Below are positions 8,129-63,979 of a stretch of DNA of 64,000 nt, piece after piece. Position numbers and translations under genes: made by a program. Source of the DNA: Clostridium sp. CAG:710 (GTDB lineage Bacteria; Bacillota_I; Bacilli_A; RF39; UBA660); the NCBI GenBank assembly GCA_000432595.1, contig HF996867.1, forward strand, positions 72,522 through 136,521, written 5' to 3'. The notes under the pieces are model-generated. The model saw only the letters and a list, made by a program, of their open reading frames with translations. It was not told the origin of the DNA and did no database searches. Every line of letters begins with the position of its first letter. Position 1 is the first letter of the stretch.

Positions 8129-8233
8129 TGTATTAAAAAATAAAGTGCGTTATAATTTTTAAAGAAGTTTAAAGAAAGTTGGTGCTTAACTATGAAATGA
8201 ATTGTTTAAGAATTTAAAGGGGGTAATAAAATT

Positions 8234-8419
8234 ATGATGAAAGAAAGTGATAAACATTATGAATATTTAAGAGCTTATATAGCTGAACTTGCTATGTTAG
8301 AATTTATAAAAGATAATAACTTAATTAATGATATTGAATACAAAAAGATTAAAAATAAAATTGAAAATGAATATGCAAAACGTAATAAATTAAACAATTC
8401 TAATTATAGTTTTGCATAA
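8234..8419 (+). CDS. Small hypothetical protein preceding the recombinase
   Basis: RBS AAAGGGGG lies 8 nt upstream. 61 aa and helical (LINDIEYKKIKNKIENEY). Function unknown. Confidence 0.4.
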   Translation: MMKESDKHYEYLRAYIAELAMLEFIKDNNLINDIEYKKIKNKIENEYAKRNKLNNSNYSFA

Positions 8420-8470
8420 TAAAAATATTATTTGAAATATGCTATTATTCAACAATTAGGAAAGGAATAA

Positions 8471-10255: not shown

Positions 10256-10325
10256 GAAATATTAAATACCTCTCATATGTTTCCTCACTTAAATGCAAAA
10301 AGTGTACCCTAAATTTAAAAATTTC

Positions 10326-10592
10326 TTAAAAAGTTTTAATTTCTTTCAAATTATACTTTTCTTTACGCTCTTTAATGTAGAATAGTTTATTACTAATTTC
10401 ATTTACTTTATATTCAAATATAGTAATAGTAATGGGATATATAATTAGATACTCAGTTGGTTCAATAAACTGCAAATTAGTATTTAGAAGAACTTTAACT
10501 TTTCCTTTTTTAGTTTTATAAGTAAATTCTTTAATAAGTTCTAGTAGTTTAGGATTAGGTTTGAGTTCTTGGGTAATTTTAAATTCAAGCAT
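10326..10592 (-). CDS. Conserved small ORF found at element right ends (family of 3 in this window)
   Basis: Strong RBS GGAAGGAGGA precedes MLEFK. NTNLQFIEPTEYLIIY aligns with HTNLAYVEPHKVIINN (17485-17757) and GTNVAYVMPHIIVIKN (59547-59883). Confidence 0.45.
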   Translation of the reverse strand: MLEFKITQELKPNPKLLELIKEFTYKTKKGKVKVLLNTNLQFIEPTEYLIIYPITITIFEYKVNEISNKLFYIKERKEKYNLKEIKTF

Positions 10593-10678
10593 AAAAAATG
10601 TCCTCCTTCCTAGAAAGAGAACATTATCTTTATATTTGGTAGAACAAGCCTTCAAGCCTGACTACGGACAAAATAAAA

Positions 10679-10724
10679 ACTTACGAACTTTAATTAGTCC
10701 GTAAGTTGTCTTCAAATGGAGCGA
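10679..10724. repeat. Element-end module: hairpin plus CAAATGGAGCGA motif
   Basis: ACTTACG (10679-10685) pairs with CGTAAGT (10700-10706) after an A-run, followed by CAAATGGAGCGA (10713-10724). About 85 percent identical by eye to 62301-62350. Confidence 0.65.
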
Positions 10725-10948
10725 TAACTTTACTTATATTCGAAAAATTATACTCTCAAAGTTGTAACGATTAAATCAACTAAATAAATTATATATTATT
10801 TTAATAATAAAATCAATAGAAAAAAGCATAAAATGTATTGACTTTTTATAAAAATGGTATAAAATATAACAAAAGCGAAAAAAATATTTTAAAAAATGGT
10901 ATCATTTAGTTCGTTTTATGATATAATACTATTGAAAGGATGATTATT

Positions 10949-12271: not shown

Positions 12272-12285
12272 AGGATAAATGATTA

Positions 12286-12873
12286 ATGAAGTCGTTAAAT
12301 TATACAAAAGCAGTTGTAATTGTTCATGGCAAGTCTGAAAAACAAATTTGTCAATATATAAAAAATAAACTTAGATTAAAAATGGAAATATATAGTGATA
12401 AAAATGGTGAAAAAGCAATACAAATAACTAGTTTAAAAAATACACTTAATAATAAGATTTTTAAATCATTTAAGAATTTTATTAAAACATATGAAGATAT
12501 TAAATTAACTAATGACGAAAAAAATATAGACGATGAATTTAAAATATTCATTATTATGGATACTGATGATTGCACTGAAAAACAAAAAAAAGATTTTATT
12601 AATAAGGAAATATTTAAGGAACATTGGGCATATAAATATATTGTGCCTATATATAACATTCCAGAACTTGAATCAGTTTTAGAAATGGCAAAAATTCCGT
12701 TTACAAAAACAGGAGATAAAAGAAAAAAAGAATATATTAAATTATTTCCAACTGATCCAAGATATGAGAAAACTGATGAAATTCAGATTAAAGAATTACT
12801 AAATACTTTAAAAAAACAAAATAATACTAATTTAAATGAGTTTTTAGATTTTTGTCTAAAATCATCTAATTAA
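12286..12873 (+). CDS. RloB-like (Toprim-like) protein, partner of the ATPase (AbiLii-like)
   Basis: VVIVHGKSEKQ, IIMDTDD and IYNIPELESVL parallel the RloB pattern (CEGEKTE ... DRD ... NPCFE). It starts 14 nt after the ATPase stop. Confidence 0.6.
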   Translation: MKSLNYTKAVVIVHGKSEKQICQYIKNKLRLKMEIYSDKNGEKAIQITSLKNTLNNKIFKSFKNFIKTYEDIKLTNDEKNIDDEFKIFIIMDTDDCTEKQKKDFINKEIFKEHWAYKYIVPIYNIPELESVLEMAKIPFTKTGDKRKKEYIKLFPTDPRYEKTDEIQIKELLNTLKKQNNTNLNEFLDFCLKSSN

Positions 12874-13174
12874 TATACTTACAATACTTGATACTTTTAC
12901 CTCAATAATGACATTAATATTGCCTATTTGGATTTCAATAATTTTATTGTTAATAGTTGTTATAATTAAGTTAATGAATCAAATGGAGGAAAATATTATA
13001 AAAAATAATAGTGGTGTAAAAAACTGCGGTGTATGTAGGCAACCAAATTATTTATTATTGATGGTGTATTAAGTTTGTATAGATGCGCAGTTTGAGGTGC
13101 AAATCCTCAGCCTACACCTAATATTTGTTAAATAATAAAATATATGATATAATTTTAGTAGGAGGTAGATATTT

Positions 13175-13753
13175 ATGGATAATAAGTCGTCAGGAAGAGT
13201 AATGTTAGAAAGAGCAATAGAATCTGGAAAAGGAACTTTAAGATTATTTAGTGCATTTATTGAAGAAACTGTTTTAAAAGGGAAATCAATTAGTAAAATA
13301 GCAAATAGTACATATTTAGTTGCATTAAGTGAGTTAGCAAAGTCATATGCAAGTTTTGATTCTACAAGTGCTATAAATCAATTAGATAATTTCTTTGCTT
13401 TAGTTACAACTGTTTCAAGAGTTCAAAGCGGTATGCTTATGGAAGGAATAATTGATAAAGAATATAATTATACATATGGTCAAACTATTATAGAAAATTC
13501 AAAACCAATGAATAATTATCCTGGTGCAGTAGAAGATCATAATCAACAACTTTTAAGATTAAACCAACAACATGAAATAGATTTAGCATCATGTAAAAAG
13601 CAAATATATCCTGAATCATTGTTGAAATCAAAACGTGAGGCACCATTTGTTGCTAAAGATGGAGCAGAATATCCAACCATATTAGATTATGTAGCATATG
13701 TAACTAAATTACAAGAAGAGATGGAAAAGACATCTTCTGGTCCAAAAAAATAG
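13175..13753 (+). CDS. Hypothetical protein
   Basis: RBS GGAGG 8 nt upstream; 192 aa; no motif recognised. Convergent with the relaxase gene. Confidence 0.5.
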   Translation: MDNKSSGRVMLERAIESGKGTLRLFSAFIEETVLKGKSISKIANSTYLVALSELAKSYASFDSTSAINQLDNFFALVTTVSRVQSGMLMEGIIDKEYNYTYGQTIIENSKPMNNYPGAVEDHNQQLLRLNQQHEIDLASCKKQIYPESLLKSKREAPFVAKDGAEYPTILDYVAYVTKLQEEMEKTSSGPKK

Positions 13754-13770
13754 AAAAAGACAAAACTAGG

Positions 13771-15075
13771 TCATAAACTCCTAGAATTGTCTTTTTCTTT
13801 TTGTATGTCTTTATCAAAATTATTAATATTATCTTGCATAGATTTTGCTCTTTCTTTTATATCTTTACAATATTTGTCATACTTACGAAGTTTTTTAATT
13901 TTAGGTTGAATATCATTTATTTCAGCAAGTATTTTAGATTTATCTTCTTCATTTTTAACTTTATGATATTTTTTCCAAAGGCTTTCTCTTTTATCCATAA
14001 AAATTTTATATTCCTCATAATTGATTTTAGAAAAATGATTTAAGTCTTCTTCTGTTTCAATGTTATTCTTTTTCATAAATACTATTTGATTTGAATATTC
14101 ATCTAATTTTGTAATTTCTTTTCTAATTGAGTATGGTAGATATTGTTTAGGATGCTTCTTTGGAAATACGCCTAATAAATAACAATAGTATAAGTATAAG
14201 CCATAAATACCTTTATGCGATTTATTAGTCTTTAAGTATTCTTCAAAAATAGACTTTTGAGGTATAGGCTTAAATACAATTTGTCTTGATAAATATAATC
14301 TTTTGCTAATACCATCTTTAGAATATTCTTTACCAAATGCTTTTTCTATTCTAACCTTATCCTCATTATCTTTATAAATAGTTATAGTGTCATTTTTAGA
14401 GTATATTTTGTATCCTAACTCTCTCATTCTTTGAACAACTTGTTTAAGTGTTACTGAATAGCTAATAACATTATCTAAATCTTCTTTTAATATTCTATAA
14501 TAGTCATCACTTAATACTTTATTCTTGTAGGTGTTTTTGTAGCCTATATCTTCATCTAAAGTTGATAATCCATATTCAACACATAATGAGTCTGATATAT
14601 GTCTTAACTTAGCTAGATTAGTCCTATTGTTGTTATACTTTTTACCAGTTTTAAATGAAACAGAATTCACTATGAAATGATTATGAATATGATTAGTGTT
14701 TTGATGTGTTGCTACAACCACTTCAAAGTCCTTAAACATTTCTTCTGCAAACTTTACTCCAATCTCATGAGCAATATCAGAAGTAACTTCTCCTTCTTTA
14801 AAAGATTGATAACTATGAAACGCTAATATCCCATTTGTTTTTCCATATTCTTCTTTTGTAAAAAGCATATCTTCATAAGGATTTCTTTCAGAGCAGTTTA
14901 TTGAACTAACATAACATACTTTTTCGTTTTTATAATTGTTTTCTGTATTCTCAATTTCAAGATAACTATATAAGTTTTTTCCATAATCTTTATTGATGGT
15001 TTTTTCGGGATTAATGATATAATTTATTGACTGTTTTAAATTATTTTTAATACTCCAAATAGAAGTAGTCGCCAT
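13771..15075 (-). CDS. mob: MobA/VirD2-type relaxase (mobilisation nuclease)
   Basis: N-terminal MATTSIWSIKNNLKQSINYI and the histidine triad HQNTNHIHNHFIVN. Confidence 0.85.
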   Translation of the reverse strand: MATTSIWSIKNNLKQSINYIINPEKTINKDYGKNLYSYLEIENTENNYKNEKVCYVSSINCSERNPYEDMLFTKEEYGKTNGILAFHSYQSFKEGEVTSDIAHEIGVKFAEEMFKDFEVVVATHQNTNHIHNHFIVNSVSFKTGKKYNNNRTNLAKLRHISDSLCVEYGLSTLDEDIGYKNTYKNKVLSDDYYRILKEDLDNVISYSVTLKQVVQRMRELGYKIYSKNDTITIYKDNEDKVRIEKAFGKEYSKDGISKRLYLSRQIVFKPIPQKSIFEEYLKTNKSHKGIYGLYLYYCYLLGVFPKKHPKQYLPYSIRKEITKLDEYSNQIVFMKKNNIETEEDLNHFSKINYEEYKIFMDKRESLWKKYHKVKNEEDKSKILAEINDIQPKIKKLRKYDKYCKDIKERAKSMQDNINNFDKDIQKEKDNSRSL

Positions 15076-15102
15076 AATTAAGGTTTAGCCTTTCTATATA
15101 GT

Positions 15103-15129
15103 GGATTTTTGGGGTGGGAGTAAAAATCC
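15103..15129. promoter_or_regulatory. Candidate oriT hairpin upstream of the relaxase gene
   Basis: GGATTTTT (15103-15110) pairs with AAAAATCC (15122-15129) around the G-rich loop GGGGTGGGAGT. The core GTGGGAGTAAAA recurs in the 134-bp repeat. Confidence 0.3.
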
Positions 15130-15150
15130 GTTGCTTGCTTATAGAAAGAA

Positions 15151-15504
15151 TCAATCATAGATTAACTCTTTTAAAATAATTTCTTCAGTCATATTTCTAT
15201 AATTATTCATCAATTTAACCCATTCAATTTGATTATTATCTTTACTTTTTTCAGATAGTTTGTCGTCATTTTCAATATAGTTACTCATTAAAATATTGTA
15301 TCTTTTAGAGCATTCAATACTGACCGAAAGAAGATGATTTGTTAATTCATTTTTCATCAGTAATGACACATATAATCCTTTTTTATGATTTTTAATATAA
15401 TCTAATCTTAAATATCCATACTTATTAAGTTGTTTATAATTCTGTTTTTTAATTGTTAAATTTGGCAATAAATAGTCACCAATTTTTGTATATTCAATAT
15501 TCAT
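15151..15504 (-). CDS. tnpV: TnpV-family transposon protein
   Basis: GDYLLPNL..., LSEKSKDNNQIEWVKLMNNYRNMTEEIILKELIY. Lies directly downstream of the recombinase gene, as in Tn4451. Confidence 0.85.
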   Translation of the reverse strand: MNIEYTKIGDYLLPNLTIKKQNYKQLNKYGYLRLDYIKNHKKGLYVSLLMKNELTNHLLSVSIECSKRYNILMSNYIENDDKLSEKSKDNNQIEWVKLMNNYRNMTEEIILKELIYD

Positions 15505-15522
15505 AATTTTATTATTTCCTTT

Positions 15523-17364
<1,842 letters not shown>

Positions 17365-17377
17365 TTAGGGTAGTGAA

Positions 17378-17413
17378 AGGCACCAAAAAAGGTGTCACAT
17401 AACAAGGACACCT
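17378..17413. promoter_or_regulatory. Operator-like G(G/A)CACC half-sites upstream of tnpX
   Basis: AGGCACC (17378-17384), AGGTGTC (17390-17396) and GACACCT (17407-17413). The last two form a 7-bp inverted repeat just 5' of the tnpX RBS. Confidence 0.35.
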
Positions 17414-17484
17414 CTAGATTTTATTGATTATTTGTACGACAAAAACAACCAATATTATGGGAGTATCTAAACTCTCAAATCAAT

Positions 17485-17757
17485 TTAATGCCTTGCTATG
17501 TATTCTGATAATTCAGATAATGGAACTTTATTTTGTAAGTTTCCTAAATAAAAATATTTTTGTTCATTAAAGAACAAGTATAACTGGTTATTTATTATAA
17601 CCTTATGAGGTTCAACATACGCTAGATTAGTATGTTCAACAATTCGTAAGCAACCTTCGTAGATTTTATATTTCTGCTTACTAAATTTGCAAGACCAATC
17701 GATTTTGGTTTTGAGTTCATCACTCATATTGATTTTCTTCTTAATTATTTTAATCAT
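17485..17757 (-). CDS. Conserved small ORF at the element right end
   Basis: 90 aa with RBS AAAGGTG. Homologous to 10326-10592 and to the frameshifted 59547-59883. Confidence 0.45.
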   Translation of the reverse strand: MIKIIKKKINMSDELKTKIDWSCKFSKQKYKIYEGCLRIVEHTNLAYVEPHKVIINNQLYLFFNEQKYFYLGNLQNKVPLSELSEYIARH

Positions 17758-17789
17758 ATCACATCACACCTTTCTTTGCAATAACGCAC

Positions 17790-17814
17790 AAAAAAATCAA
17801 CTATTTCTAGTTGA
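17790..17814 (-). terminator. Rho-independent terminator downstream of tRNA-Gly
   Basis: TCAACTA-TTTC-TAGTTGA (17797-17814) with a T-run on the minus strand (17790-17796). A near copy lies at 59882-59906. Confidence 0.6.
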
Positions 17815-17855
17815 CTTAATCATTAACGTCACATTGGTGCGACGATTTTATCTTA

Positions 17856-17929
17856 TGGAGCGGACGATGGGAATCGGACCCACGTAGTTAGCTTGGAAGG
17901 CTAAGGTTCTACCATTAAACTACGTCCGC
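17856..17929 (-). tRNA. tRNA-Gly (anticodon UCC) with an unusual T-loop
   Basis: Hand-folded cloverleaf: acceptor GCGGACG/CGTCCGC, D-loop with GG, anticodon loop CTTCCAA, T-arm GTGGG-TCCGATT-CCCAT, encoded CCA. Position 55 is C rather than T. Confidence 0.85.
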
Positions 17930-52158: not shown

Positions 52159-52578
52159 ATGAAAAAATATAATGTAATAGTGGTTTTTGAAAAAGACTTA
52201 AATAGAACTTTAATGTGTAAAAGGACGAAAGAACCTTACAAAGGAATGTTTAATTTAGTTGGTGGAAAAATTGATAAAGAAAATGATGGATTAAATGAAG
52301 CGTATAGAGAGTTGCGGGAAGAAACAAATATTAACTGTGATGATATTTCCTTGATTCATTTTATGAATATTGAATATGTTACTATGGGTAAATTAATTGA
52401 AGTATATTATGGTATATTGAATAAAGATGTATGCCTAGTTGAAGAAGTTAATAAACTTGAATGGGTTGATATAAACGATAACTTTTTTGATATGAATAAA
52501 TATGCTGGAGAAGGTAATATAGGACACATCATTGAGGAGATAAAAATCGAGTTGAATAATAAAAACATTAATTTATAA
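52159..52578 (+). CDS. NUDIX hydrolase
   Basis: Nudix box GGKIDKENDGLNEAYRELREETNI. Confidence 0.75.
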   Translation: MKKYNVIVVFEKDLNRTLMCKRTKEPYKGMFNLVGGKIDKENDGLNEAYRELREETNINCDDISLIHFMNIEYVTMGKLIEVYYGILNKDVCLVEEVNKLEWVDINDNFFDMNKYAGEGNIGHIIEEIKIELNNKNINL

Positions 52579-52707
52579 CTTTTGATTTTGTTTCATATTT
52601 AATTTTAGCAGGACAGGAGAATAAGCACGTTCAATGCGAAAATCCTTATTTTAAAAGTAAAAAGCATTTTTGCACTTGAGTTAATGAATATAATAATATA
52701 AAAAAAC

Positions 52708-52755
52708 CTCACACACTAGTATTTAAGTGTACGAGTATTAATTAAAATGGAGTGA
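52708..52755. repeat. Element-end module: hairpin plus AAAATGGAGTGA motif
   Basis: A-run (52701-52706), imperfect hairpin CTCACACACT/AGTGTACGAG (52708-52735), then AAAATGGAGTGA (52744-52755). Same architecture as 10679-10724. Confidence 0.45.
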
Positions 52756-52926
52756 TAGATAAGATAATTTGAAACCATCACTATATAACTAATTTCTATA
52801 AACATATGACTATATTTTATATGTTTTCAAAACAATTTAATAAAATTGATAAAAATAATGTTATAATTAATGCGTAAGGATAAATAATCTGAATTTATTT
52901 TAGACTATTTGGAAGCAGGTGAATAA

Positions 52927-54558
52927 ATGGAAGTAGTAGATTTTAATAAAGTATTATCAAAATCCCTCGATGTAGTTGATGTTGGAATAAACAAGGGTTA
53001 TTTTGATGAGAATAAAAAAGAAGAACTAAACAATAAGTTAGTTACTATATTTAATAATGGCATAGTTTATGATTTACCTGGTACATCAGTATATGGAATG
53101 TATTCTTCTAGTGAAAAAAAATTGTATTTTAATGCTAAAGTTTTTAAAACTGAAGAAGAAGCATTAGTTTATATATTACATGAGATTAAACATGGATTAG
53201 ATCATTATGATGAATCGATTGGTTTTGAATATGAAGATAAAGGTGTTGGCATGAATGAAGGTGCTACTCAAAGGTTTGCGACTGATTTAGCAGAAGAAAT
53301 GTTGCAGACTGAATTTCCTAGAAATATTCAATCTTCATTAGGAATACAATTTAATACATATTTAGACGAATATCAGATTGAAGATAAATTGAATGAATTG
53401 TTTTGTATAGCAACAGGAATAAGTATAAACGAATTTATTAAAATGCAAAATGACCCACAAAAAGAAGAATTTAAAAGATTAATTGATAAATTCAATCAAC
53501 ATGCTAGTTATGAAGTATTTAGAGAACTGCTAGATCAAATATATATGATTCAAGAAGAAACATGGCTTGATGAAAATCGCAATATGTTAGATAAAGAAAA
53601 AGAACCAACTGCTGAGCAAACAAAAAGAGCAATGAATCTAATAAGTCGTTGTAAAAAATTATTATTGAAATATGCAAAAAGAGCAAATATAACTGCTGTA
53701 GATAAAATTAAGGAGGTATCTTTTATGTCAATAGATGAGTATGGTCACATTATTAAAGATAGTTATGATGAACCAACTATACACACAAATTCAGAAGAAA
53801 ATGATATAATGTCTGAAGAAAATATAGTTATGCAAGCAGATTATATCAATTATCAGCAAAACATTTTAAATCAAATTGGAAGTAATGCTTTTAATAATGA
53901 ATGTGCTGTTGTTTTCGTTACCGAATTTAAATATGATAACTGTGAAAAAAATGTCTTTCTAAGAAAAGGAAACGACTATCAAAAAATTATAATTCCAATG
54001 AAGAATGATAAAACAATGGACATTGCTAATATTAGTGTTCAAAAAGTTGATGATATAAATGAGATAAAACTTTCAATTGAAGATTGTGAAACAGAATTTG
54101 GCGTTATTGCAAACGCTCCAGAATATGCAAGAGTTTTAAGTATGTCAGGTGATGATGGCAAAGCCCAAAGTATTTTAAATAAATGGAATTATTTTTTAAG
54201 TAGACAAAATGAATTAGATCAAATTAGACAAAGGGTTGAAGAACAGGATATAACATTTAGGAATAACATGGAAAGATTAAGAAGTTCATTAGGAGATAAT
54301 GGGGAAACAACACCTCAGCAATCTTATTTTGATACCTTATTTAATAAAACCATTAAATATGGAAATATTGTAGTAAATGAAGATGGAATTAATATTGTAA
54401 ATCCAGATGGTTCAATAAAATTTGCTACAGCTGAAGAAGAAGAACAATATATATCACAAATAAGAAGAGCTGTAGAGAATGGTGAAATATTATTAAATAG
54501 AGCTCAATTAGGAGTATTAGATTTATATACAAATGGTGATACTCATAAAAAAATGTAG
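52927..54558 (+). CDS. HExxH zincin-like protein with a long uncharacterised C-terminal region
   Basis: LHEIKHGLDH with a downstream MNEGATQ as a possible third ligand; 543 aa. Confidence 0.45.
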   Translation: MEVVDFNKVLSKSLDVVDVGINKGYFDENKKEELNNKLVTIFNNGIVYDLPGTSVYGMYSSSEKKLYFNAKVFKTEEEALVYILHEIKHGLDHYDESIGFEYEDKGVGMNEGATQRFATDLAEEMLQTEFPRNIQSSLGIQFNTYLDEYQIEDKLNELFCIATGISINEFIKMQNDPQKEEFKRLIDKFNQHASYEVFRELLDQIYMIQEETWLDENRNMLDKEKEPTAEQTKRAMNLISRCKKLLLKYAKRANITAVDKIKEVSFMSIDEYGHIIKDSYDEPTIHTNSEENDIMSEENIVMQADYINYQQNILNQIGSNAFNNECAVVFVTEFKYDNCEKNVFLRKGNDYQKIIIPMKNDKTMDIANISVQKVDDINEIKLSIEDCETEFGVIANAPEYARVLSMSGDDGKAQSILNKWNYFLSRQNELDQIRQRVEEQDITFRNNMERLRSSLGDNGETTPQQSYFDTLFNKTIKYGNIVVNEDGINIVNPDGSIKFATAEEEEQYISQIRRAVENGEILLNRAQLGVLDLYTNGDTHKKM

Positions 54559-54880
54559 TAAATACTCAATTAAAGTTCATATCACTTATGTTTGCACAAA
54601 CTCTCAAAACAGATATAACTATTATCCTTATTCTAAATATAAATATGATGCTTCTAAATCACAAGAAAAAGTTAATATATTTATGTAATTATAAAAATAT
54701 TGTTTTATAAAGAAAAAATCGAACTAAATAGTTGGACAATTTTTATAAATGTAGCGATACCAAAGGTTATTTGAAACTCTTAGTAATAAAAGCTGATAAA
54801 CGACTAATTCCTAAAACAATAATACATATTTTTTTAGATATTAAATAGATTTAAAGAAAATTGAGTAAATAAAAGGTATA

Positions 54881-55530
54881 ATGTATTTAGAAATTCATTC
54901 AGGGAATGATAATATGCTTAAAGAGTTAAAAATAGAATTAACTAATAAATGTTCTAGAATAATTAAAGAAGCAAAACTAATGGGTGCTGAAACTATAGTT
55001 TTTACTGGTGGAGAGACTTTAATGTATGATAGACTTCCTGGACTCGTAGAATTGACTTCAAAATTAGGAATGAAATCAACTATTTATATTTTTGCATATA
55101 GAACCGATGAAACTTTAAATAAATACAAACAATTAATTGATTTAGGGTTAAATAAAATAGTTTATTCACTTGCTGATTAACTATCTGATGAAGAAGATAT
55201 TTCAATTTATGATAAGGCTGAATTCTTTGATAAAGTATCTGAAAACAATTATGCAAGATTATGATTTCATTATACTGTTTCAAAAGATTCTTTTACTAGA
55301 TTAGAACAAGTAGTAAATGGACCTACTGATATGGATTTATCAAAAGGAAAATTATTAGAAATTAAAAAACTTTATTTAAACTCAAATGATAAAGATAGAA
55401 TTAGATTAGGTATTAGTGAAAATATATAATCCAGAGTATTTTAGCAATAATAGAAAATTTAATACTGATGATTCTTGTTCTTCTTGTGAACAAACTATAT
55501 ATATAAAAGTGGTTGTATTGGACAAAATAT
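54881..55530 (+). pseudogene. Decayed radical SAM gene
   Basis: LKIELTNKCS (the CxxxCxxC cluster is missing) and ETIVFTGGETLMYDRL. The reading frame breaks at about 55180 and continues in other frames; a Cys-rich remnant CSSCEQ lies at about 55480. Confidence 0.45.
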
Positions 55531-55618: not shown

Positions 55619-56554
55619 ATGAAGAAAAGACAAGAAGTATATGATTTATATTGGTATTTTGCTTGTGAAAGGCAAAATATATTTTGGAAAAAAATAAATG
55701 GAGAATCTGCTCCATGGACTGAAGATAAAATTTTACAAGAATATAAGTTTTGTAATAGTTATAGAGTCAATGACAGAGTTAGCCAATACTTATTAAAGAA
55801 TGTTATTTATAATGGTAAAAGATATACTGATGAAGATATGTTATTTAGAATATTAATATTTAAACTATTTAATAAAGAATCTACTTGGGAATTATTATTA
55901 AATAGTTTTGATGATATTACTTTAAAAACATTTAATATTAAAGATTATTCAATAGTATTGGAAAATGCTATATCTAGTGGTATTAAAATATATAATGATG
56001 CCTATATAAGTTGTGCTAATAAAGCATTTGGATATGATAGAAAACACGATAATCATTTAGCATTACTTAATAAAATGTTTAATGAAGATAGAATACAAGA
56101 TAAAATAGTAAAGTGCAAAAATATGGAAGAAGCATTTAATATAATTAAAAGCTATCCATTAATTGGAAACTTCATGGCCTATCAATTAGTAACTGATATA
56201 AATTATAGTGAAGTGGTAGACTGGAAAGAAGATGAATTTACTATTGCTGGACCTGGATCACTTCGTGGAATAAAAAAATGTTTTATTGATAAAGGCAAAA
56301 TGAGTAATGAAGATATAATTAGATATATGTATGAACATCAAGATGAAGAATTTAAAAGACTTAATTTAGATTTTAAAAGAATTTACAATAGACCATTGCA
56401 ACTTATAGATTGTCAAAATATATTTTGTGAATTAGATAAATATTGTAGACAAGCATTACCGGATTTAAAATCGAATAGAACTAAAATAAAAAAGCACTAC
56501 ATACCGAAGAAAGAAAAAATAGAATATGTTTATCCAAAAAAGTGGAAGTTTTAA
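55619..56554 (+). CDS. Putative DNA base hypermodification protein (alpha-glutamyl/putrescinyl thymine pyrophosphorylase-like)
   Basis: N-terminal YWYFACERQNIFWKK...APWTEDKILQEYKFCNSYRVNDRVSQYL matches my memory of the aGPT-Pplase family signature (ER..I...PWT.D.IL..Y+F.N.YR..DR). Confidence 0.5.
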   Translation: MKKRQEVYDLYWYFACERQNIFWKKINGESAPWTEDKILQEYKFCNSYRVNDRVSQYLLKNVIYNGKRYTDEDMLFRILIFKLFNKESTWELLLNSFDDITLKTFNIKDYSIVLENAISSGIKIYNDAYISCANKAFGYDRKHDNHLALLNKMFNEDRIQDKIVKCKNMEEAFNIIKSYPLIGNFMAYQLVTDINYSEVVDWKEDEFTIAGPGSLRGIKKCFIDKGKMSNEDIIRYMYEHQDEEFKRLNLDFKRIYNRPLQLIDCQNIFCELDKYCRQALPDLKSNRTKIKKHYIPKKEKIEYVYPKKWKF

Positions 56555-57159: not shown

Positions 57160-58128
57160 GTGAAATTATTTGATGAAATAAAACCAGTGTTTTTTATTGA
57201 CAATAAAATGAATAATCTATTAAATGATATAAATGTTAAACTTAAAAATATAAATGTTAATGATAAACAAAAAAGAAAATATATGATTTCAAAATCTAAA
57301 ATAAGGTCAATTCATTCTTCACTTGCAATTGAAGCTAATTCATTATCTTTATTTGATGTAGAAAGTATATCAGAAAATAAACTAATATTAGGTAAAAAAG
57401 ATGAAGTACAAGAAGTAAAAAATGCAATTGAAGCATATAATCATATAAATGAATATAATTATAAAAGTGAAAATGATTTATTAAAGTTACATAGGTTAAT
57501 GATGAAATACTTTGATGAAGATAATGGTAATTATAGAAATCATGGAGAAGGAGTAAAAAGAAAAGATGAAATAATATATATGGCACCTGAATCAATTTTG
57601 GTTCCATCATTAATGAAAAGTTTATTTGAATATATAAGTAGTAGTGATTTAAATATTATTATTTTATCTGCAATTTTTCATTATTATTTTGTTTTTATTC
57701 ATCCTTTTTCAGATGGAAACGGAAGATGTGCTAGATTTTGGGTAACATTAATGCTAATAAATTATGATAAAAATTTTGAATTTATACCGTTAGAAGAAGA
57801 GATATACTTAAATCAGGAAAACTACTACTTAGCTATAGCAGAATGTCATAATAATGGAAATGCAAATGTATTTATAAAGTTTATTTTACAGACAATTAAT
57901 TCATCATTAGATAAATTGATAAAAAATAGTAATTTTGTTTGTAATGATATTCAAAATAAAATTATAGAACTAATAGCAAATAATAATAGAATTACGCAAA
58001 ATGAAATAGCTAATATAACTAATGTTAATGTAAGAACCATTAAAAGAAATTTTAAAATATTAATAGATAATTTAATAATTGAAAGAATTGGTTCTGACAA
58101 AGCGGGATATTGGCAAATACTAAAATAA
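57160..58128 (+). CDS. Fic-family protein with C-terminal winged-helix domain
   Basis: Fic motif HPFSDGNGRCARFW; C-terminal ELIANNNRITQNEIANITNVNVRTIKRNF is HTH-like; GTG start. Confidence 0.85.
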   Translation: MKLFDEIKPVFFIDNKMNNLLNDINVKLKNINVNDKQKRKYMISKSKIRSIHSSLAIEANSLSLFDVESISENKLILGKKDEVQEVKNAIEAYNHINEYNYKSENDLLKLHRLMMKYFDEDNGNYRNHGEGVKRKDEIIYMAPESILVPSLMKSLFEYISSSDLNIIILSAIFHYYFVFIHPFSDGNGRCARFWVTLMLINYDKNFEFIPLEEEIYLNQENYYLAIAECHNNGNANVFIKFILQTINSSLDKLIKNSNFVCNDIQNKIIELIANNNRITQNEIANITNVNVRTIKRNFKILIDNLIIERIGSDKAGYWQILK

Positions 58129-58507: not shown

Positions 58508-59305
58508 ATGTATAAAATAGGAGATTTTTCTAAAATGTCTAAAACCACCATAAAGGCATTAAGATACTATGAAAAAGAAGGATTATTAAAACCTGTTTTT
58601 ATAGACCAAAATACGAGTTATAGGTATTATGAAAGTAGTCAGTTAGTTGATATTTCAAAGATAATATCCTTAAGGCAAATAGGCTTATCAATTAAAGACA
58701 TTAAAAAAGTTTTAGATGGACAAGATATGTCGTTAATTCTTAATAAAAGAAAAAATGAAATTGAGAAAAATATTTCTAATTTTAATATTGAGCTTTCTAA
58801 AATAAATTATTTATTGGAGGAAAACAATATGAAAAATGAGATTTTTATCAAAGACATTCCAAGTTACATTATTTATTATCGTGATGGAATGATAGAGGAT
58901 TTTAGTAAAATTACAGAATTTGTTTTACAAGCAGGAACAGAATGTGCAAAAGCAAATCCAAACTTAAAGTGCATAAACCCAGATTATTGTTATATCAGTT
59001 ATTTAGATGGAGAATACAAAGAAAAAGATATCAAGATTAGATATGCACAAGCAGTTGAAAAATTAGGAAACGAAACTGATAAAGTTAAATTTATGAAATC
59101 AAATCCTATTACAGCAGTATGTATTTATCACAAAGGAGCTTATAATAATTTAAGAGATTCTTATAATATTATTTTAAAATACATTGAAGATAATGGATAT
59201 GAGATAATAGATAATGCGAGAGAATGTTATATTGATGGATGTTGGAATAAAGAAAATGAAGAAGATTATTTAACAGAGATTCAATTTCCTGTTAAGAAAA
59301 GATAA
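58508..59305 (+). CDS. MerR-family regulator with GyrI-like effector-binding domain
   Basis: MYKIGDFSKMSKTTIKALRYYEKEGLL (MerR HTH), a coiled-coil linker and a C-terminal domain of about 150 aa. The ATG at 58508 follows GAGGAGG. Confidence 0.85.
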   Translation: MYKIGDFSKMSKTTIKALRYYEKEGLLKPVFIDQNTSYRYYESSQLVDISKIISLRQIGLSIKDIKKVLDGQDMSLILNKRKNEIEKNISNFNIELSKINYLLEENNMKNEIFIKDIPSYIIYYRDGMIEDFSKITEFVLQAGTECAKANPNLKCINPDYCYISYLDGEYKEKDIKIRYAQAVEKLGNETDKVKFMKSNPITAVCIYHKGAYNNLRDSYNIILKYIEDNGYEIIDNARECYIDGCWNKENEEDYLTEIQFPVKKR

Positions 59306-59883: not shown

Positions 59884-59959
59884 AAAAACTAACTATTTCT
59901 AGTTAGCATTTATTGCTCCCAGAAGTTAATTTCCGAGCTTCCTATCAATTTGGAGCGAA
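59882..59959. repeat. Element-end module: terminator-like hairpin plus CAATTTGGAGCGAA motif
   Basis: AAAAAAACTAACTATTTCTAGTTAG (59882-59906) is a near copy of 17790-17814. The motif lies at 59946-59959. Confidence 0.6.
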
Positions 59960-60103
59960 TAAACAACAAGTTACGAACCAAGTTCCCTTTCTAAAAATAT
60001 TATATATGTATTGTTATTAAATTCCAATAGGCATATGGAAAAAAATACGTTTATATAGTATAATTTTTATAGTTTAAAATTAGTAAAAGTTAGGAAGTTA
60101 TAT

Positions 60104-61531
60104 ATGAAAATAGGAATAGATATAGACAATGTAATATCAAATTTTAACGATACTTTATTAAATGAATATTTGCTACATGATAAAAAAATAAGAAATTCGG
60201 GTGTTATAAATAAAAATGCTGATTATATTAGAAAAGGAATGTTTGATTGGAATGAAGATGAAGAAACCAATTTTTATAAAAATAATATAGAAAGAATAGC
60301 AAAAAAATTAGGTGTTATTGAAGGAGCTAAAGAATATATAGATAAGCTTCATGATGATGGTCATGTTATTTGTATTATCACAGGAAGAAATAATGGAGAA
60401 TATACAGAACCATATAATATGACAAAAAAGTGGCTTGATGAAAATAATATTTATTATGATAACTTGATTTTAACAGATGCCTATGATAAACACGCTAAAA
60501 CTAAGCAATGTTTAGAGCATAATATTGATATTATGATTGATGACTCTGTTCGGATATGTAATGATTGTATTGAAAATGGAATAACAACAGTTTTAATGGA
60601 TACACCTTATAACAAATCTTCTAATATCCAAAGAGTTAAAAGTTGGGAAGAATTTTATAGATATGTCTCAAATTATAAAAAAGATAAAATTAATATAATA
60701 TTAGATACTGATACTTATAATGAATGTGATGATCAATTTGCATTATCATATTTAATAAAATCGAAAGACTTATTTAATATTGAAGCAATAACAATTGCAC
60801 CATATTCTCATACAAAAAGAGATGTAAAAGTAAGGGATAGCCAAGAGTTAAGTTATAATGAAATTTTAAAGATATGTAATTGGTTAAACTTTGATACAGA
60901 TAATAAGGTGTTTAAAGGTTCGGTGGATTACATTCAAAACGGTTATGATGAAAAAAATGTTGCTGTAAATAAAATTATAGAAATAGCTTTAAAAAATAAT
61001 AAAACTTATATATTAGGGATTGGCGCTATTACTAATATTGCTTTAGCAATAAAAAAAGAACCAAAAATAGTAAACAAAATAGAAATTATTTGGTTAGGTG
61101 GCAATGAACTTGGCTACAAAGATAACCTTGAATATAATTTTAGACAAGATGTTGAAGCTGTAAAAATAGTATTTGAATCAAAAGTGAAGTTAACTATACT
61201 TCCTTGTAAAAATGTTGTTTCAGAATTAAGAATTGATATTAATACTCTAAAAAAACATTTAGAGAACAAATCAGACTTATGTAATTATTTAATTGAAAGA
61301 TTTTATAATGATGGATATCATGGTGTGCAAGAATCAAGAGTAATATGGGATATATCAGTAATAGCTTATATGATAAATAAAAATTGGTTTGAAACGGAAC
61401 AAATAAGTTGTCCTAATATAAGAAAGGATACTTCTTATGAAGTAACGTACAATAGACATAATATTATTTTTGTTACTAAATTAGATAGAAATAAAATATA
61501 TGATGATTTATTTAAAAAGATAGGAGAATGA
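60104..61531 (+). CDS. Fusion of a HAD/NT5C-type 5'(3')-deoxyribonucleotidase domain and a nucleoside hydrolase (IUNH-like) domain
   Basis: N-terminus: IGIDIDNVISNF (DxDxV), ITGRN, MIDDS. C-terminus: IILDTDTYNECDDQFAL (aspartate cluster of inosine-uridine nucleoside hydrolases). Confidence 0.6.
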   Translation: MKIGIDIDNVISNFNDTLLNEYLLHDKKIRNSGVINKNADYIRKGMFDWNEDEETNFYKNNIERIAKKLGVIEGAKEYIDKLHDDGHVICIITGRNNGEYTEPYNMTKKWLDENNIYYDNLILTDAYDKHAKTKQCLEHNIDIMIDDSVRICNDCIENGITTVLMDTPYNKSSNIQRVKSWEEFYRYVSNYKKDKINIILDTDTYNECDDQFALSYLIKSKDLFNIEAITIAPYSHTKRDVKVRDSQELSYNEILKICNWLNFDTDNKVFKGSVDYIQNGYDEKNVAVNKIIEIALKNNKTYILGIGAITNIALAIKKEPKIVNKIEIIWLGGNELGYKDNLEYNFRQDVEAVKIVFESKVKLTILPCKNVVSELRIDINTLKKHLENKSDLCNYLIERFYNDGYHGVQESRVIWDISVIAYMINKNWFETEQISCPNIRKDTSYEVTYNRHNIIFVTKLDRNKIYDDLFKKIGE

Positions 61532-62142
61532 AGATGAAATTAACAAGTAAAGAAGCAAGAACATTATTAGAAACAGAAAGAAAAAACACAACAGATGATA
61601 GATGGATAGAACACTGTATATCTGTAGGTGATAGTGCTTTTAGAATTGCTAAAGCATTATGTGAAAAAGGAATAAATGTAGATATAGACAAAGCAACTAC
61701 TCTAGGATATTTACATGATATTGGTAAGTATAATGGTGAGTCACATGGACATGTTATGAGGGGATATGAATACTTAAAAAACAAAGGATATGATGATGAA
61801 TATGCAAATATATGCTTAACTCATTCATACTTAAATAATGATATAGTGTGTACTGCCGGAGGAGTTCCAAATCCAAATGATAATCCTTTTTTAACAAATT
61901 TTATAAAAAATCATGAATATACTATAGAGGAAAAGATAATAAATTTATGTGATTTGATGTGTCCACAAGGAAATAAAGTATTTACAATTGATAAAAGGTT
62001 AATCGATATAATGATTAGAAGAGGTGTGTATTCTAACACCCAGTATCATATTAAAGAAACATATAAATTAAAAGAATATTTTGATAATTTATTAGGATAT
62101 AATTTGTATGACTTGTTTCCAGAAGTAAAAGAAAATTTATAA
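61528..62142 (+). CDS. HD/HDIG-domain phosphohydrolase
   Basis: HCISVGDSAFRIA...GYLHDIGK...HGHVMRG...LTHS. The start overlaps the previous stop (ATGA). Confidence 0.75.
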   Translation: MKMKLTSKEARTLLETERKNTTDDRWIEHCISVGDSAFRIAKALCEKGINVDIDKATTLGYLHDIGKYNGESHGHVMRGYEYLKNKGYDDEYANICLTHSYLNNDIVCTAGGVPNPNDNPFLTNFIKNHEYTIEEKIINLCDLMCPQGNKVFTIDKRLIDIMIRRGVYSNTQYHIKETYKLKEYFDNLLGYNLYDLFPEVKENL

Positions 62143-62148
62143 AATGAA

Positions 62149-62281
62149 TTGGGAATTTCCCATGGACGAATTTATACGAGAGTACAAATTCAGTGCTGGC
62201 TAGACATAGATTTAATTCCCATATTCAAAAAAATATGCAAAAAGAGGATTAAATTATTTTGATAATTTTTTCCTCTTTTTT
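62149..62281 (+). repeat. 134-bp repeat, copy 2
   Basis: See copy 1 (1896-2029). Here no tnpV or recombinase follows. Confidence 0.75.
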
Positions 62282-62304
62282 GAAAATCATTTATATAAAA
62301 TAAA

Positions 62305-62350
62305 AACTCACGAACAATTAAGTCCGTAAGTTGATTTCAAATGGAGCGAA
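62305..62350. repeat. Element-end module: hairpin plus CAAATGGAGCGAA motif
   Basis: ACTCACGAAC...GTCCGTAAGT hairpin, then CAAATGGAGCGAA (62338-62350). Near copy of 10675-10724. Confidence 0.65.
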
Positions 62351-62557
62351 TGTCGTAGGTATCTACAACTTTTCACTTCTTAACGATTTGATACATAAAA
62401 TTTTAATCTATAATAAAATTGTACCACAAATTATAAAAAATAGTTTAAAAAACCGATAATATTGCAATAATTGCTTTATATTCAAATGAAAATATGATAG
62501 AATTAAGATAGTTGAGTATCTAAAATGATACTCTTTTCTTTTGGAAAGAAGGTACAT

Positions 62558-63979
62558 ATGAAGAAAAAGCGATTTAGCGAATATAATAACTATAAATATG
62601 ACTTATCTAAAGATACATGGTTTAATCCTGTTGTAGAATGGGATTCTAAACTCTTTATTGATCCTTTATTACTAAAAAGAACTAATATTAAAGAGCTAAA
62701 AAATTGTTATCAAGAGTTAATTAAATTCTTTAAAAATGCTTGTGTTGCATTAAAAACAAAATCAATACCAAAAACATTAGTAGAAAATATGTTAAATTTT
62801 AGAGAGGTTGAAGAAGCACAACTAGGATACTCTTATAATAGCAATAAAGGTAGTGGCTTTTCTGGTTTAACTGCTTTAAAATTTTTTGAAAACTTTTCTA
62901 AATATATAGATTTAAAAATATTTAATTACGATGAACTGGAAGAAATTACTCTATTTGAAGAAAATGTTGATCTTGATAGGATAACTGATATGATATTGTC
63001 TATAACAAAACGCTATTTTATAGCATATAGTTGTAGTATTGCAGAAAAAGAGGGATTTCCTTTAGATAAATTTAATATATTAACTCATTTTAATTTTGAC
63101 GAAATGAGTTGGATATCTGAGATAGTTAAATTACCTTACATAATTAACAATGAGAATAAAAAAGTCCCTGTATTATTGGTTCCACATTCTATCTTAGTTG
63201 GAGAATTACATTATAATTCTGAAAACTTTATTACTTGGTTATGGAATAATGAAACAGACTATGTAAAAGATACATTTGAATATAATATAAAAAAAGAATT
63301 AGAGTCCAACAAAAAGGAAATTATAGAAAAAATTATAGAAAATAACGATACTGACCTTTTTAAAAGGTTTGGTAATGAACCTGTTGAACCATATGATTTA
63401 CAAAAAGATAAAGATATAATTAACAAAGTTTATGATTTTGTTAAAGATATAAAAATATCAAATAAAGATAGCGAAATTTCTGTGCTAGAAATGGCTGATG
63501 ATTTAATAAATGATATCGAACATGCTGTACAAGATGAAAGAGGATGGTCCTTACTATTAAGTGATACAAGTATTAAATTTAGAGCCGAACCAATTATATC
63601 AAAGTTTTCCCACCTAATTATAGAAAGAAAATCTGAGAGTTTGGGATTTAATTTAGATATTTCCCCTGAAACAAATAAAGGTAGAGGTCCTGTTGATTTT
63701 AAACTATCTAGAGGTAGAGAAAAAGTGTTAATTGAAATAAAAACTTCTACACATCCAGATTTAATGACTTGTATAGAAGATCATAAACAATTGCATCAAT
63801 ATATGAAACAAGAAAGTTGCAAAGATGCAATTTTATTAGTTTTTTATAATAAAGAATCTGATTTAGAAAAAATAAATGAACTGCATACTAAAGTAGCAGA
63901 GTCTAATAAAAGAAATAACCATAATATGATGATAAGGACAATAAATTGCATACCTGGTCCGTCAGCTTCTAATTTATAA
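62558..63979 (+). CDS. Hypothetical protein with C-terminal PD-(D/E)xK nuclease-like motif
   Basis: GRGPVDFKLSRGREKVLIEIKTS gives the D ... E-x-K arrangement. The N-terminal 350 aa have no recognised motif. The ATG at 62558 follows GAAGG. Confidence 0.4.
   Translation: MKKKRFSEYNNYKYDLSKDTWFNPVVEWDSKLFIDPLLLKRTNIKELKNCYQELIKFFKNACVALKTKSIPKTLVENMLNFREVEEAQLGYSYNSNKGSGFSGLTALKFFENFSKYIDLKIFNYDELEEITLFEENVDLDRITDMILSITKRYFIAYSCSIAEKEGFPLDKFNILTHFNFDEMSWISEIVKLPYIINNENKKVPVLLVPHSILVGELHYNSENFITWLWNNETDYVKDTFEYNIKKELESNKKEIIEKIIENNDTDLFKRFGNEPVEPYDLQKDKDIINKVYDFVKDIKISNKDSEISVLEMADDLINDIEHAVQDERGWSLLLSDTSIKFRAEPIISKFSHLIIERKSESLGFNLDISPETNKGRGPVDFKLSRGREKVLIEIKTSTHPDLMTCIEDHKQLHQYMKQESCKDAILLVFYNKESDLEKINELHTKVAESNKRNNHNMMIRTINCIPGPSASNL

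Follow-up and report, generated by a model that had tools for sequence, protein, structure and literature searches.

A nucleotidase-nucleoside hydrolase fusion and its HD-domain partner carried by a recombinase-less cassette at a tRNA-Gly hotspot of uncultured gut Bacilli

Breakdown of nucleotides by a nucleotidase followed by a nucleosidase is a known route, and both of its enzymatic steps and both folds have been described. Nucleoside hydrolases of the IUNH family (PF01156) are represented by RihA, RihB and RihC of E. coli, IU-NH of Crithidia and the plant enzyme NRh, while 5'(3')-(deoxy)ribonucleotidases of the NT5C or cdN/mdN type (PF06941) belong to the HAD phosphatases. Small all-helical HD/HDIG phosphohydrolases of approximately 200 residues include the 5'-deoxynucleotidase YfbR, the nucleoside triphosphate (NTP) pyrophosphohydrolase YpgQ, the diadenosine tetraphosphate (Ap4A) hydrolase YqeK, the small alarmone hydrolase and OxsA. 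Within a stretch of 64,000 nucleotides of contig HF996867.1 of Clostridium sp. CAG:710 (the window, to which all coordinates below refer unless a locus label beginning with L is given), two neighbouring genes bring such activities together: the fusion gene FUS, encoding an NT5C-type and an IUNH-like domain in one polypeptide, and the partner gene HD. New in this locus are the fusion, the altered fingerprint and Trp-type site found in a large subfamily without annotation, an HD partner dedicated to FUS, an expandable operon and a cassette as its vehicle. On balance it appears probable that FUS and HD form a metabolic operon for recycling or salvage, or for pool trimming, of ribonucleotides, and the pair is most likely cytoplasmic, constitutively transcribed and not an immune system, contrary to an earlier note on this DNA that had proposed a depletion-type anti-phage module.

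The open reading frame (ORF) of FUS (60104-61531, plus strand, 475 residues, stop codon at 61529-61531) falls into two domains. The N-terminal domain (60104-60673, plus strand, residues 1-190) is an NT5C-type HAD phosphatase of the 5'(3')-nucleotidase family, matched by PF06941 over residues 3-188 (39.6 bits; Pfam cut-off 24.8). The C-terminal domain (60689-61531, plus strand, residues 196-475), a predicted and divergent IUNH-like N-ribohydrolase, is matched by the IU_nuc_hydro profile PF01156 over residues 198-465 (88.6 bits; cut-off 34.2), the match extending over profile positions 1-295 of 297. The AlphaFold2 model, built from an alignment of 105 sequences, shows two domains with a mean predicted local distance difference test score (pLDDT) of 95.3, and pLDDT exceeds 93 throughout the NT5C domain. 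Profiles and model thus confirm the fusion of a HAD/NT5C and an IUNH-like domain read in the earlier note from the motifs DIDNV (residues 6-10), MIDDS (144-148) and DTDTYNECDD (201-210), all of which are present. A Foldseek search placed the modelled C-terminal domain within the nucleoside hydrolase fold, next to RihA, YeiK, plant NRh, RihC of L. reuteri and IU-NH (E-values of 1e-16 to 1e-13, target template modelling (TM) scores of 0.63-0.77), with a sequence identity of just 17-22%; RihA, YeiK, NRh and RihC reached E-values near 1e-16 and TM scores of 0.70-0.77. FUS scored far below the cut-off of every named Rih equivalog of NCBIfam (RihC 53 bits versus 382), and no curated family describes the fusion, whose Pfam domains match singly. 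No signal peptide is present, the catalytic DxD being located already at residues 6-8.

Conservation of the catalytic residues was followed in 79 species-level copies of FUS. HAD motifs I-IV (D6xD8, T/S93, K132 and D146-D147) are conserved, with D6, D8, T/S93, K132 and D147 invariant. In the hydrolase domain D201, D203, N206, E207, D209, D210, T310, N311, N345, D349, W415 and D416 are invariant and E343 is kept in 78 of the 79 copies. The catalytic residues are also retained in fusions down to 27% identity, the most distant of which vary at T310 and carry Phe or Tyr at the position of W415. An HMMER alignment with Crithidia IU-NH (1MAS) equates T310/N311 with T126/N127, E343/N345 with E166/N168 and W415/D416 with H241/D242, and the Ca2+ and ribose ligands T126, E166, N168 and D242 (IU-NH numbering) accordingly have equivalents in FUS that are invariant or kept in 78 of 79 copies. 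Unlike the described members of the family, FUS possesses a fused N-terminal phosphatase and an invariant Asp cluster (D201-T-D203-x-x-N206-E207-x-D209-D210) that contains an Asn-Glu pair and is two residues longer than the canonical DxDxxxDD, D209/D210 possibly corresponding to D14/D15 of IU-NH. Furthermore, the leaving-group residue His241 of group I enzymes is missing, its place being taken by Trp415 in all 79 copies. An aromatic residue in place of this His is the hallmark of Trp-type (group II), purine-preferring nucleoside hydrolases, and because Trp415 agrees with group II and not with the RihA/B/C type, the domain was not classed as a Rih equivalog.

In IUNH enzymology the ligands of the ribose 2'- and 3'-hydroxyl groups and of Ca2+ mark ribonucleoside hydrolases. 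Their retention in FUS therefore implies that ribosides, not deoxyribosides, would be its substrate class, and breakdown of deoxynucleosides along a deoxynucleoside triphosphate (dNTP) route becomes unlikely. The pairing of the NT5C domain with a hydrolase of ribo-specific type likewise suggests a ribonucleotide as substrate of the first domain. This domain resembles the described NT5C enzymes in its Pfam score and in its DxD, T/S, K and DD motifs; it differs from them in being fused to a nucleosidase, and in the same lineage NT5C domains also stand alone beside transporters or are fused to them. NT5C homologues from phages (25-29% identity) carry the annotation phosphatase or 5' nucleotidase, and next to them a deoxynucleoside monophosphate (dNMP) kinase is encoded.

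The longest form of the HD reading frame (61528-62142, plus strand, 204 residues) overlaps the end of FUS by ATGA. Both reading frames and their overlap, as described in the earlier note, are present in the sequence, but translation probably starts at ATG 61534 (61534-62142, plus strand, 202 residues) rather than at 61528, since an AGGAG at 61522-61526 lies 7 nucleotides upstream of the former and 1 nucleotide upstream of the latter, Met3 of the long form (the ATG at 61534) is invariant among homologues, database gene calls on record give HD 202 residues, and the gap between FUS and HD is +2 nucleotides in most species. The overlap itself is thus probably not used, and the two genes stay tightly coupled at a distance of 2 nucleotides. 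HD scored above cut-off with PF01966 (residues 27-142, 40.4 bits versus 22) and with the HDIG model TIGR00277 of NCBIfam (34.8 bits versus 27.6); its metal ligands H29, D64, H99 and D142 are invariant in 60 copies and H63 is found in 59 of the 60. These scores and the preserved H...HD...H...D residues bear out the assignment of the partner as an HDIG-type phosphohydrolase, and together with the two sites of FUS the conservation demonstrates three intact, predicted hydrolytic active sites under purifying selection.

The structure model of HD (pLDDT 78.7) gave weak Foldseek matches (E-values of at least 0.03, TM 0.37-0.48), all of them to small nucleotide phosphohydrolases, namely YqeK-like 3ccg, small alarmone hydrolase, YpgQ, YfbR, PgpH and OxsA, and the best match in a sequence search of the PDB had an E-value of 0.11. 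Assignment to a specific subfamily was rejected, as TIGR00295 reached 53 bits versus 172 and YqeK 23.8 versus 70, with fold and PDB matches being weak. Hence, HD shares with the small HD enzymes its length, ligands and top fold matches and shows no specific relationship to any of them; its fold class appears clear, while specificity would not be transferable from matches of this weakness. The best of these, 3ccg, was deposited as 'HD superfamily hydrolase involved in NAD metabolism' (NAD, nicotinamide adenine dinucleotide), and NCBIfam returned weak matches of HD, below cut-offs, to YqeK and to NadD-HD fusions. Both would agree with a pyridine-riboside pathway, in which FUS converts nicotinamide or nicotinate mononucleotide (NMN or NaMN) to the riboside and further to nicotinamide or nicotinate and ribose, and HD acts on an NAD-related or Ap4A-type dinucleotide. 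In yeast the IUNH-family enzyme Urh1 and HAD nucleotidases act on nicotinamide riboside and NMN; CinA-type and NUDIX genes recur near FUS loci, and genes for PnuC and an isochorismatase occur elsewhere in the window. We nevertheless regard this pathway as very unlikely: the HD matches are far below family cut-offs by fold (E of at least 0.03) as well as by the YqeK score (23.8 versus 70 bits), the PnuC and isochorismatase genes belong to a different element 55 kb off, and no NAD salvage genes are directly linked inside the cassette.

The distribution of FUS was assessed by several searches. A word-indexed protein search revealed 3494 relatives, the best 120 of these 3494 being all at least 91% identical, and an exhaustive search of representative proteins yielded 4117 matches. 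A scan of species-representative genomes confirmed 279 stretches, and the best 79 of these 279, used for the locus analyses, carry full-length FUS with 64-99% identity in approximately 77 metagenome-assembled genomes (MAGs), two assemblies having two copies each. All 79 loci belong to low-GC MAGs of uncultured gut bacteria whose labels read Bacilli, 'Tenericutes', Clostridia or 'Clostridium sp. CAG', and HD-bearing contigs are as large as 1.27-1.44 Mb. Related uncultured gut Bacilli have been characterized as genome-reduced and auxotrophic (PMC6784871). Full-length fusions were also found in several 50%-identity clusters (P0123, P0124, P0134, P0142, P0155, P0167, P0177 and P0242). Judging by this recurrence at full length, in 79 loci and in distinct 50%-identity clusters with identities as low as 27-30%, the fusion is not a chance artefact. 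A text search of the literature retrieved no paper on an NT5C-IUNH fusion, nor on an IUNH-type enzyme in phage defence.

Outside the fusion, a large family of stand-alone proteins of approximately 300 residues shares 30-50% identity with the C-terminal domain of FUS only and is likewise devoid of a specific match among curated families. P0137 (520 residues), from a different lineage, is an independent fusion of an HD domain to an IUNH-like domain, and its HD domain has no detectable similarity to HD of the window. Together with the conserved active-site residues, P0137 lends support to the consecutive route from nucleotide over nucleoside to base that had been proposed for this locus. Immediately before its gene (L102 6001-7563) come a large serine recombinase and a TraG/VirD4-type coupling protein, and the gene lies at the margin of what appears to be a conjugative element. 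In P0148 an NT5C domain is fused to a transporter of the major facilitator superfamily (MFS), and other IUNH-like domains are joined to SLH, apiosidase-like, DUF4185 or xylose-isomerase-like domains.

Across species FUS and HD behave as the bookends of an expandable operon. ORF calling in all loci gave 1211 ORFs, which formed 705 clusters. A member of the HD family was found in 60 of 80 loci; in 56 of 79 loci it is encoded on the strand of FUS and no more than five genes downstream, and in approximately 29 it is directly adjacent, whereas the remaining neighbours of FUS vary between loci. Depending on the species, zero to four small genes are placed between the two. They encode a histidine phosphatase (His_Phos_1, nearest to CobC but below its cut-off; 11 cases), a HAD-like protein, a PHP/HisJ-like phosphatase, a P-loop kinase-like protein, a 2H phosphoesterase, GNAT acetyltransferases (in several species) and the membrane protein YgjV. 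Synteny is kept within sub-clades, e.g., c61-c63-c32-c62-SecA-like-FUS in L058, L064 and L076. Identities of HD to the window copy range from 56 to 100% and are in several loci uncoupled from those of FUS (L011, L015, L022, L023, L034 and L042); in L015 FUS is 78% and HD 94% identical, in L011 the values are 82% and 59%, which suggests recombination inside the operon or an interspecies exchange of its 3' part.

According to the reading that we favour, a probable metabolic operon, the three activities would act in succession; the substrates, the order of the steps and the physiological role are what we infer here. HD would hydrolyse NTP or nucleoside diphosphate, a 2'- or 3'-phosphate, or dinucleoside or cyclic species to the monophosphate or nucleoside. 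The NT5C-type HAD domain of FUS would then strip the last phosphate through a phospho-enzyme intermediate at Asp6, and the IUNH-like domain would cut the N-ribosidic bond by means of its Ca2+/Asp cluster, with Trp415 at the position of the leaving-group His, so that free base and ribose may be released for salvage or catabolism. The proposed vehicle of this pathway is a 2391-bp recombinase-less cassette consisting of a promoter leader, the two genes, a terminator and a tRNA-terminator arm, situated in a serine-recombinase hotspot.

A metabolic role is favoured because the stand-alone relatives occur in nucleoside operons and because the genes inserted between FUS and HD encode further small phosphoesterases and related enzymes. 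Stand-alone IUNH-like relatives (30-34% identity) on plasmids are part of nucleoside uptake and catabolism operons: in Klebsiella the operon comprises a PfkB kinase, the hydrolase, a NupC-like transporter and an OmpK/Tsx-type porin, and in Mesorhizobium an ABC importer followed by the hydrolase. The earlier note had itself held that homologues residing mainly in nucleoside-salvage operons would speak against defence, and the stand-alone relatives of the hydrolase domain are found in just such a setting; the alternatives it mentioned, salvage or clearance of unwanted nucleotides, fit the data better than defence does. If the metabolic reading is correct, FUS represents an uncharacterized bifunctional enzyme, a nucleotidase joined to a divergent nucleoside hydrolase of the Trp type whose Ca2+-site fingerprint is modified, accompanied by a dedicated HD partner, which is common in abundant yet uncultured gut bacteria. 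It would put a name to a large unannotated IUNH-like subfamily and aid in reconstructing the base and ribose supply of these bacteria, hence in culturing them. No new class of immunity or mechanism is opened by it at present.

Several observations weigh against a metabolic role. At least one strain can do without the unit, and the cassette resides among accessory and mobile genes, some of which have similarity to defence candidates. The gene following a distant fusion of 35% identity is unrelated to HD, i.e. the linkage is missing there. Moreover, the membrane partners of the family are not recognizable nucleoside importers and at best resemble MFS drug/H+ antiporters, which is more in keeping with export or detoxification than with uptake and salvage.

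These membrane partners deserve consideration in their own right. Stand-alone NT5C-like genes are repeatedly paired with unannotated membrane proteins of approximately 400 residues (clusters c13 and c4), and the pairs, together with the P0148 fusion, suggest a phosphatase-transporter partnership. Such pairs were observed in L027, L031, L035, L039, L040, L043, L045 and L047. Among the recurrent membrane partners no nucleoside importer was recognized, and their weak best matches, to MFS proteins of drug/H+ antiporter type, were far below curated cut-offs. A Pfam survey of 146 representatives of the flanking gene clusters revealed mainly MFS and ABC-2 transporters and two-component regulators, along with tRNA synthetases, thioredoxin-system and redox enzymes, beta-lactamase-type proteins, NUDIX, PHP, HD and GNAT proteins, and two resolvases.

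From such partners a house-cleaning or detoxification function can be derived, in which non-canonical, damaged or xenobiotic nucleotides or nucleoside analogues are preferentially destroyed and the bases or nucleosides set free are expelled by the efflux-type transporters beside the operon. The paired and fused NT5C proteins agree with it, as do neighbours of the MFS and the multidrug and toxic compound extrusion (MATE) type with weak likeness to drug/H+ antiporters, the GNAT acetyltransferases inside the operon of several species, a MerR/GyrI-type (drug-binding-type) regulator directly upstream in the window, and the presence of YfbR, YpgQ and OxsA among the characterized small HD enzymes closest in fold. 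However, no specificity determinant was identified, the MerR gene does not belong to the cassette and also occurs in the empty-site strain, the transporter assignments are far below curated cut-offs, and the deeper relatives belong to uptake and catabolism operons. We therefore hold a detoxifying function to be rather unlikely, and a metabolic operon remains the preferred reading.

FUS and HD are the only genes of a discrete insert of 2391 bp (59961-62351), which contains no recombinase. A conspecific contig (ERZ28810215 NODE_436; L091/L112) carries the empty site, where MerR-GyrI is followed directly by DUF8370-8371. It reads ...CAATT-TGGAGCGAAT-GTCGTAGG..., i.e. the left and right junctions of the window joined at a single copy of a 10-bp core, and lacks exactly 59961-62351. 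The description of the pair as sole cargo of a mini-element, carried on a discrete unit that is present or absent as a whole, is thereby borne out. Approximately seven resolved conspecific contigs are filled and one is empty, others breaking at repeats, and according to look-ups of exact proteins the conspecific gene order HMUDK_hel, Fic-HTH, MerR-GyrI, FUS, HD, DUF8370-8371 is stable. As both Fic-HTH and MerR-GyrI occur in the empty-site strain, they do not belong to the cassette.

The core TGGAGCGAAT, an att-type direct repeat, occupies 59951-59960 on the left and 62342-62351, the end of the insert, on the right (both plus strand); the window contains no further copy, the two are spaced by 2391 bp, and the reverse complement ATTCGCTCCA is similar to the 3' end of a tRNA. 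The number of copies in the window is by itself at chance level, and the core becomes meaningful because of the empty site and the link to tRNA. Left of it, in the resident flank outside the insert (59886-59950), lie the terminator hairpin of a small minus-strand ORF and a 'Bl' arm, identical in L091; this hairpin has a homologue next to tRNA-Gly, at 17796-17816. The insert opens with a 5' leader, the C module (59961-60103, plus strand), that bears a promoter-like site (60036-60064, TGGAAA-17-TATAAT) and the ribosome-binding site of FUS. The C module precedes FUS in L001, L003, L022, L023, L026 and L005, and its first approximately 80 nucleotides also precede other genes. Downstream of HD, the A module (62143-62300, plus strand) consists of a structured stretch at about 62145-62227 and the intrinsic terminator of the operon at about 62239-62283. 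With its own promoter-like site and terminator, the cassette would constitute a self-contained transcription unit. The B module, a 52-nucleotide arm (62290-62341, minus strand), contains a hairpin at 62305-62332 with a U-run (fold z = -3.8), was flagged as a minus-strand terminator, and is the native terminator following tRNA-Gly genes of this lineage.

The A module was detected in 13 copies after the stop codons of HD, Abi_C and other genes, one of them at 1898-2047 following the Abi_C gene 982-1878. Its fold is stable (z = -4.7) and covariation is slight (3 of 26 pairs compensatory), too little to call an RNA; the element of approximately 80 nucleotides could be an RNA of the 3' untranslated region or a DNA site. 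No Rfam family matched the cassette flanks at the gathering threshold or at E-values up to 1. The two flanks share the 10-bp core and patchy similarity, and terminal inverted repeats, a miniature inverted-repeat transposable element and tandem repeats were rejected, no convincing inverted or long direct repeats being present. An attC-like site of integrons was rejected on inspection, without a dedicated scan, the B hairpin being explained as the tRNA-Gly terminator.

The B module abuts real tRNA-Gly(TCC) genes in L003, L005, L026, L014 and L116, and a tRNA-His gene in L010, and the core overlaps the 3' ends of those tRNA-Gly genes. Sequence comparison thus places the origin of the 10-bp repeat at the 3' end of tRNA-Gly. 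L003 shows the succession element end, tRNA-Gly#1, spacer, TGGAGC|GAAT, C, FUS, HD, A, B, tRNA-Gly#2, that spacer once more and tRNA-Gly#3, an order such as integration into the 3' end of a tRNA leaves behind; L005 carries several cassette-type units in a row up to tRNA-Gly. BLAST breakpoints at the core mostly mirror the two junctions of the window itself. The partners of the core vary, however, with B, Bl or the tRNA spacer on the left and C, the tRNA body or other sequence on the right, and it is this variety on each side that provides the independent evidence. A, B, core and C modules were observed lineage-wide, bracketing unrelated genes (e.g., in L002, L003, L005, L008, L018 and L026), with arrays ending at tRNA-Gly.

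In the window itself, the tRNA-Gly(TCC) gene (17856-17929, minus strand), whose 3' end reads TGGAGCG, adjoins a relaxase-bearing element with a large serine recombinase (15523-17352, minus strand) at its end. This element, of approximately 7 kb and outside the cassette, is bracketed by the tRNA gene and, at its other end, by a copy of B and core at 10670-10723, and the sequence at the element end recurs in front of core-C-FUS in L003 and L117. The cassette therefore belongs to a family of cassettes that lack a recombinase and occupy a tRNA-Gly integration hotspot, which looks like a tRNA-anchored platform for such cassettes. Non-autonomous elements at tRNA genes are known as cis-mobilizable elements (CIMEs), which are left behind by accretion of integrative conjugative and integrative mobilizable elements (ICEs and IMEs), and as cargo-only satellites in tRNA-anchored islands, e.g., tycheposon arrays. 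Similar to them, the cassette is short and recombinase-less, possesses direct repeats from a tRNA 3' end and a conspecific empty site, and is arranged in tandem with elements that encode a recombinase and make use of the same end of tRNA-Gly, in arrays ending at tRNA-Gly. It differs from them in its size of only 2.4 kb with a single operon, in standard 5' (C) and 3' (A-B) modules common to cassettes with unrelated genes, and in that its mobilization is putative.

The presence and absence of the unit may result from recombination in trans or from repeat-mediated deletion, each being an interpretation of the junctions. A terminal overlap indicative of a circular or tandem form was not found in eight short FUS contigs. 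As no such form was found and another indel in the species is a plain microhomology deletion, repeat-mediated loss is as possible as site-specific excision. In either case the cassette is a clean example of gain or loss of a single operon at tRNA-Gly-derived repeats. This other indel concerns 52160-55487 (3327 bp; NUDIX, an unannotated protein of 543 residues and a radical-SAM fragment of 99 residues), a segment missing in the conspecific loci L081 and L082. It was rejected as a further cassette junction, since the deletion took place at a microhomology (TAA[T/A]AGTGGTT) and cuts the NUDIX gene short.

An accessory unit at an integration hotspot might also serve anti-phage defence, with the three activities draining nucleotides to bases upon infection and thereby starving phage replication. 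The route would be chemically sufficient to drain a nucleotide pool, and like the known depletion systems (HD-domain dGTPases, dCTP deaminases, the ATP nucleosidases of Detocs and CBASS Cap17) FUS and HD are predicted nucleotide-destroying enzymes in an accessory region. The unit is present in approximately seven resolved conspecific contigs and absent from one, the Abi_C gene of the window bears the same 3' module, and P0137 adjoins a serine recombinase and a coupling protein of a type IV secretion system. The earlier remark that the pair stands next to other defence-like cargo is only loosely true: neighbours match the PADLOC models SoFic, PDC-M36A and PDC-S07, the last two being candidate models. 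In a PADLOC search of the 146 neighbour-cluster representatives, a minority by raw count matched (mad2/3/8, one retron-type reverse transcriptase, AbiEii, AriA).

Contrary to the known depletion systems, FUS has no match to any PADLOC family and HD only a generic Cas3-HD match (E-value 0.0035). Pfam revealed no sensor, regulator or trigger domain in either protein, a regulatory partner is lacking, and the promoter looks constitutive. The hydrolase is of the IUNH type, not of the purine nucleoside phosphorylase/methylthioadenosine-nucleosidase type, and its retained ribose 2'/3'-hydroxyl and Ca2+ ligands imply specificity for ribo- over deoxynucleosides. The operon is conserved in the lineage, with full-length copies in approximately 77 related genomes and paralogous second copies; cross-species neighbours are mostly transport, regulation and housekeeping genes with scattered defence matches, and the deeper relatives have a salvage-operon setting. 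The fusion was not found in 50,697 phage records, which contained NT5C-like matches only (25-29% identity, beside dNMP kinase), nor in 72,556 plasmids, which contained stand-alone 'nucleoside hydrolase' genes only, and it was present on 2 of 2.9 million viral contigs. Among the defence papers listed by a literature search, none names a nucleoside hydrolase. The proposed depletion-type module was thus not borne out, and we consider it improbable.

The opposite role, counter-defence, was considered as well. HD and accessory 2H phosphoesterases would in that case degrade cyclic-nucleotide immune signals and FUS would clear the products, in agreement with the position of the cassette beside serine-recombinase elements, the 2H phosphoesterase genes within the operon of some species and the gene for an Apyc1-like metallo-beta-lactamase in the mobile region of the window. 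However, the first cleavage alone inactivates such a signal, which would render a conserved nucleotidase-nucleosidase fusion superfluous; no similarity to known anti-defence enzymes was found, and the fusion is essentially missing from phages, plasmids and viral contigs. This role is extremely unlikely. More broadly, FUS-HD could be immune or counter-immune cargo that acts on ribonucleotide, NAD-type or signalling-nucleotide pools in conflicts with phages or mobile elements and that spreads in a standardized cassette without recombinase, mobilized in trans by serine-recombinase elements that target the 3' end of tRNA-Gly, a proposal that we find improbable. If it were true, the lineage would possess an integron-like tRNA-anchored platform whose cassettes consist of a C leader, one or more genes, an A-B arm and the core.

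The mobile region beside tRNA-Gly (1-17929) harbours two large serine recombinases (8471-10255 and 15523-17352), a relaxase, TnpV genes and fragments of resolvases or recombinases. Its cargo comprises the Apyc1-like metallo-beta-lactamase, NUDIX, Abi_C, the NMN transporter PnuC with isochorismatase and APH, and an AAA_21 ATPase. Closer to the cassette, a stand-alone helical domain of 5-hydroxymethyldeoxyuridine (5-hmdU) DNA kinase (55619-56554; PF18723, E-value 8e-106) is encoded between the radical-SAM fragment and the Fic-HTH gene; the PF18723 family is known from phage thymidine-hypermodification clusters, whereas the present gene is part of a bacterial chromosome. The Fic-HTH protein (57160-58128) matched SoFic of PADLOC (E-value 2.8e-37) and is followed by the MerR and GyrI-like regulator (58508-59305), which immediately precedes the cassette. 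On the downstream side, the first gene after the cassette, that of the DUF8370/DUF8371 protein (62558-63979), matched the PADLOC candidate PDC-M36A (E-value 2.7e-18). A second strain-variable hotspot is located past the right end of the window, after an ORF of 39 residues downstream of DUF8370/8371 (L080 14169-21428, L081 14169-18878). While other strains continue there straight to ArsP_2-HSP20-SHMT, one strain carries Mob_Pre and a serine recombinase, and another an acyltransferase, a glyoxalase, PadR, a Tet(M)-like protein of the EF-G family and a serine recombinase.

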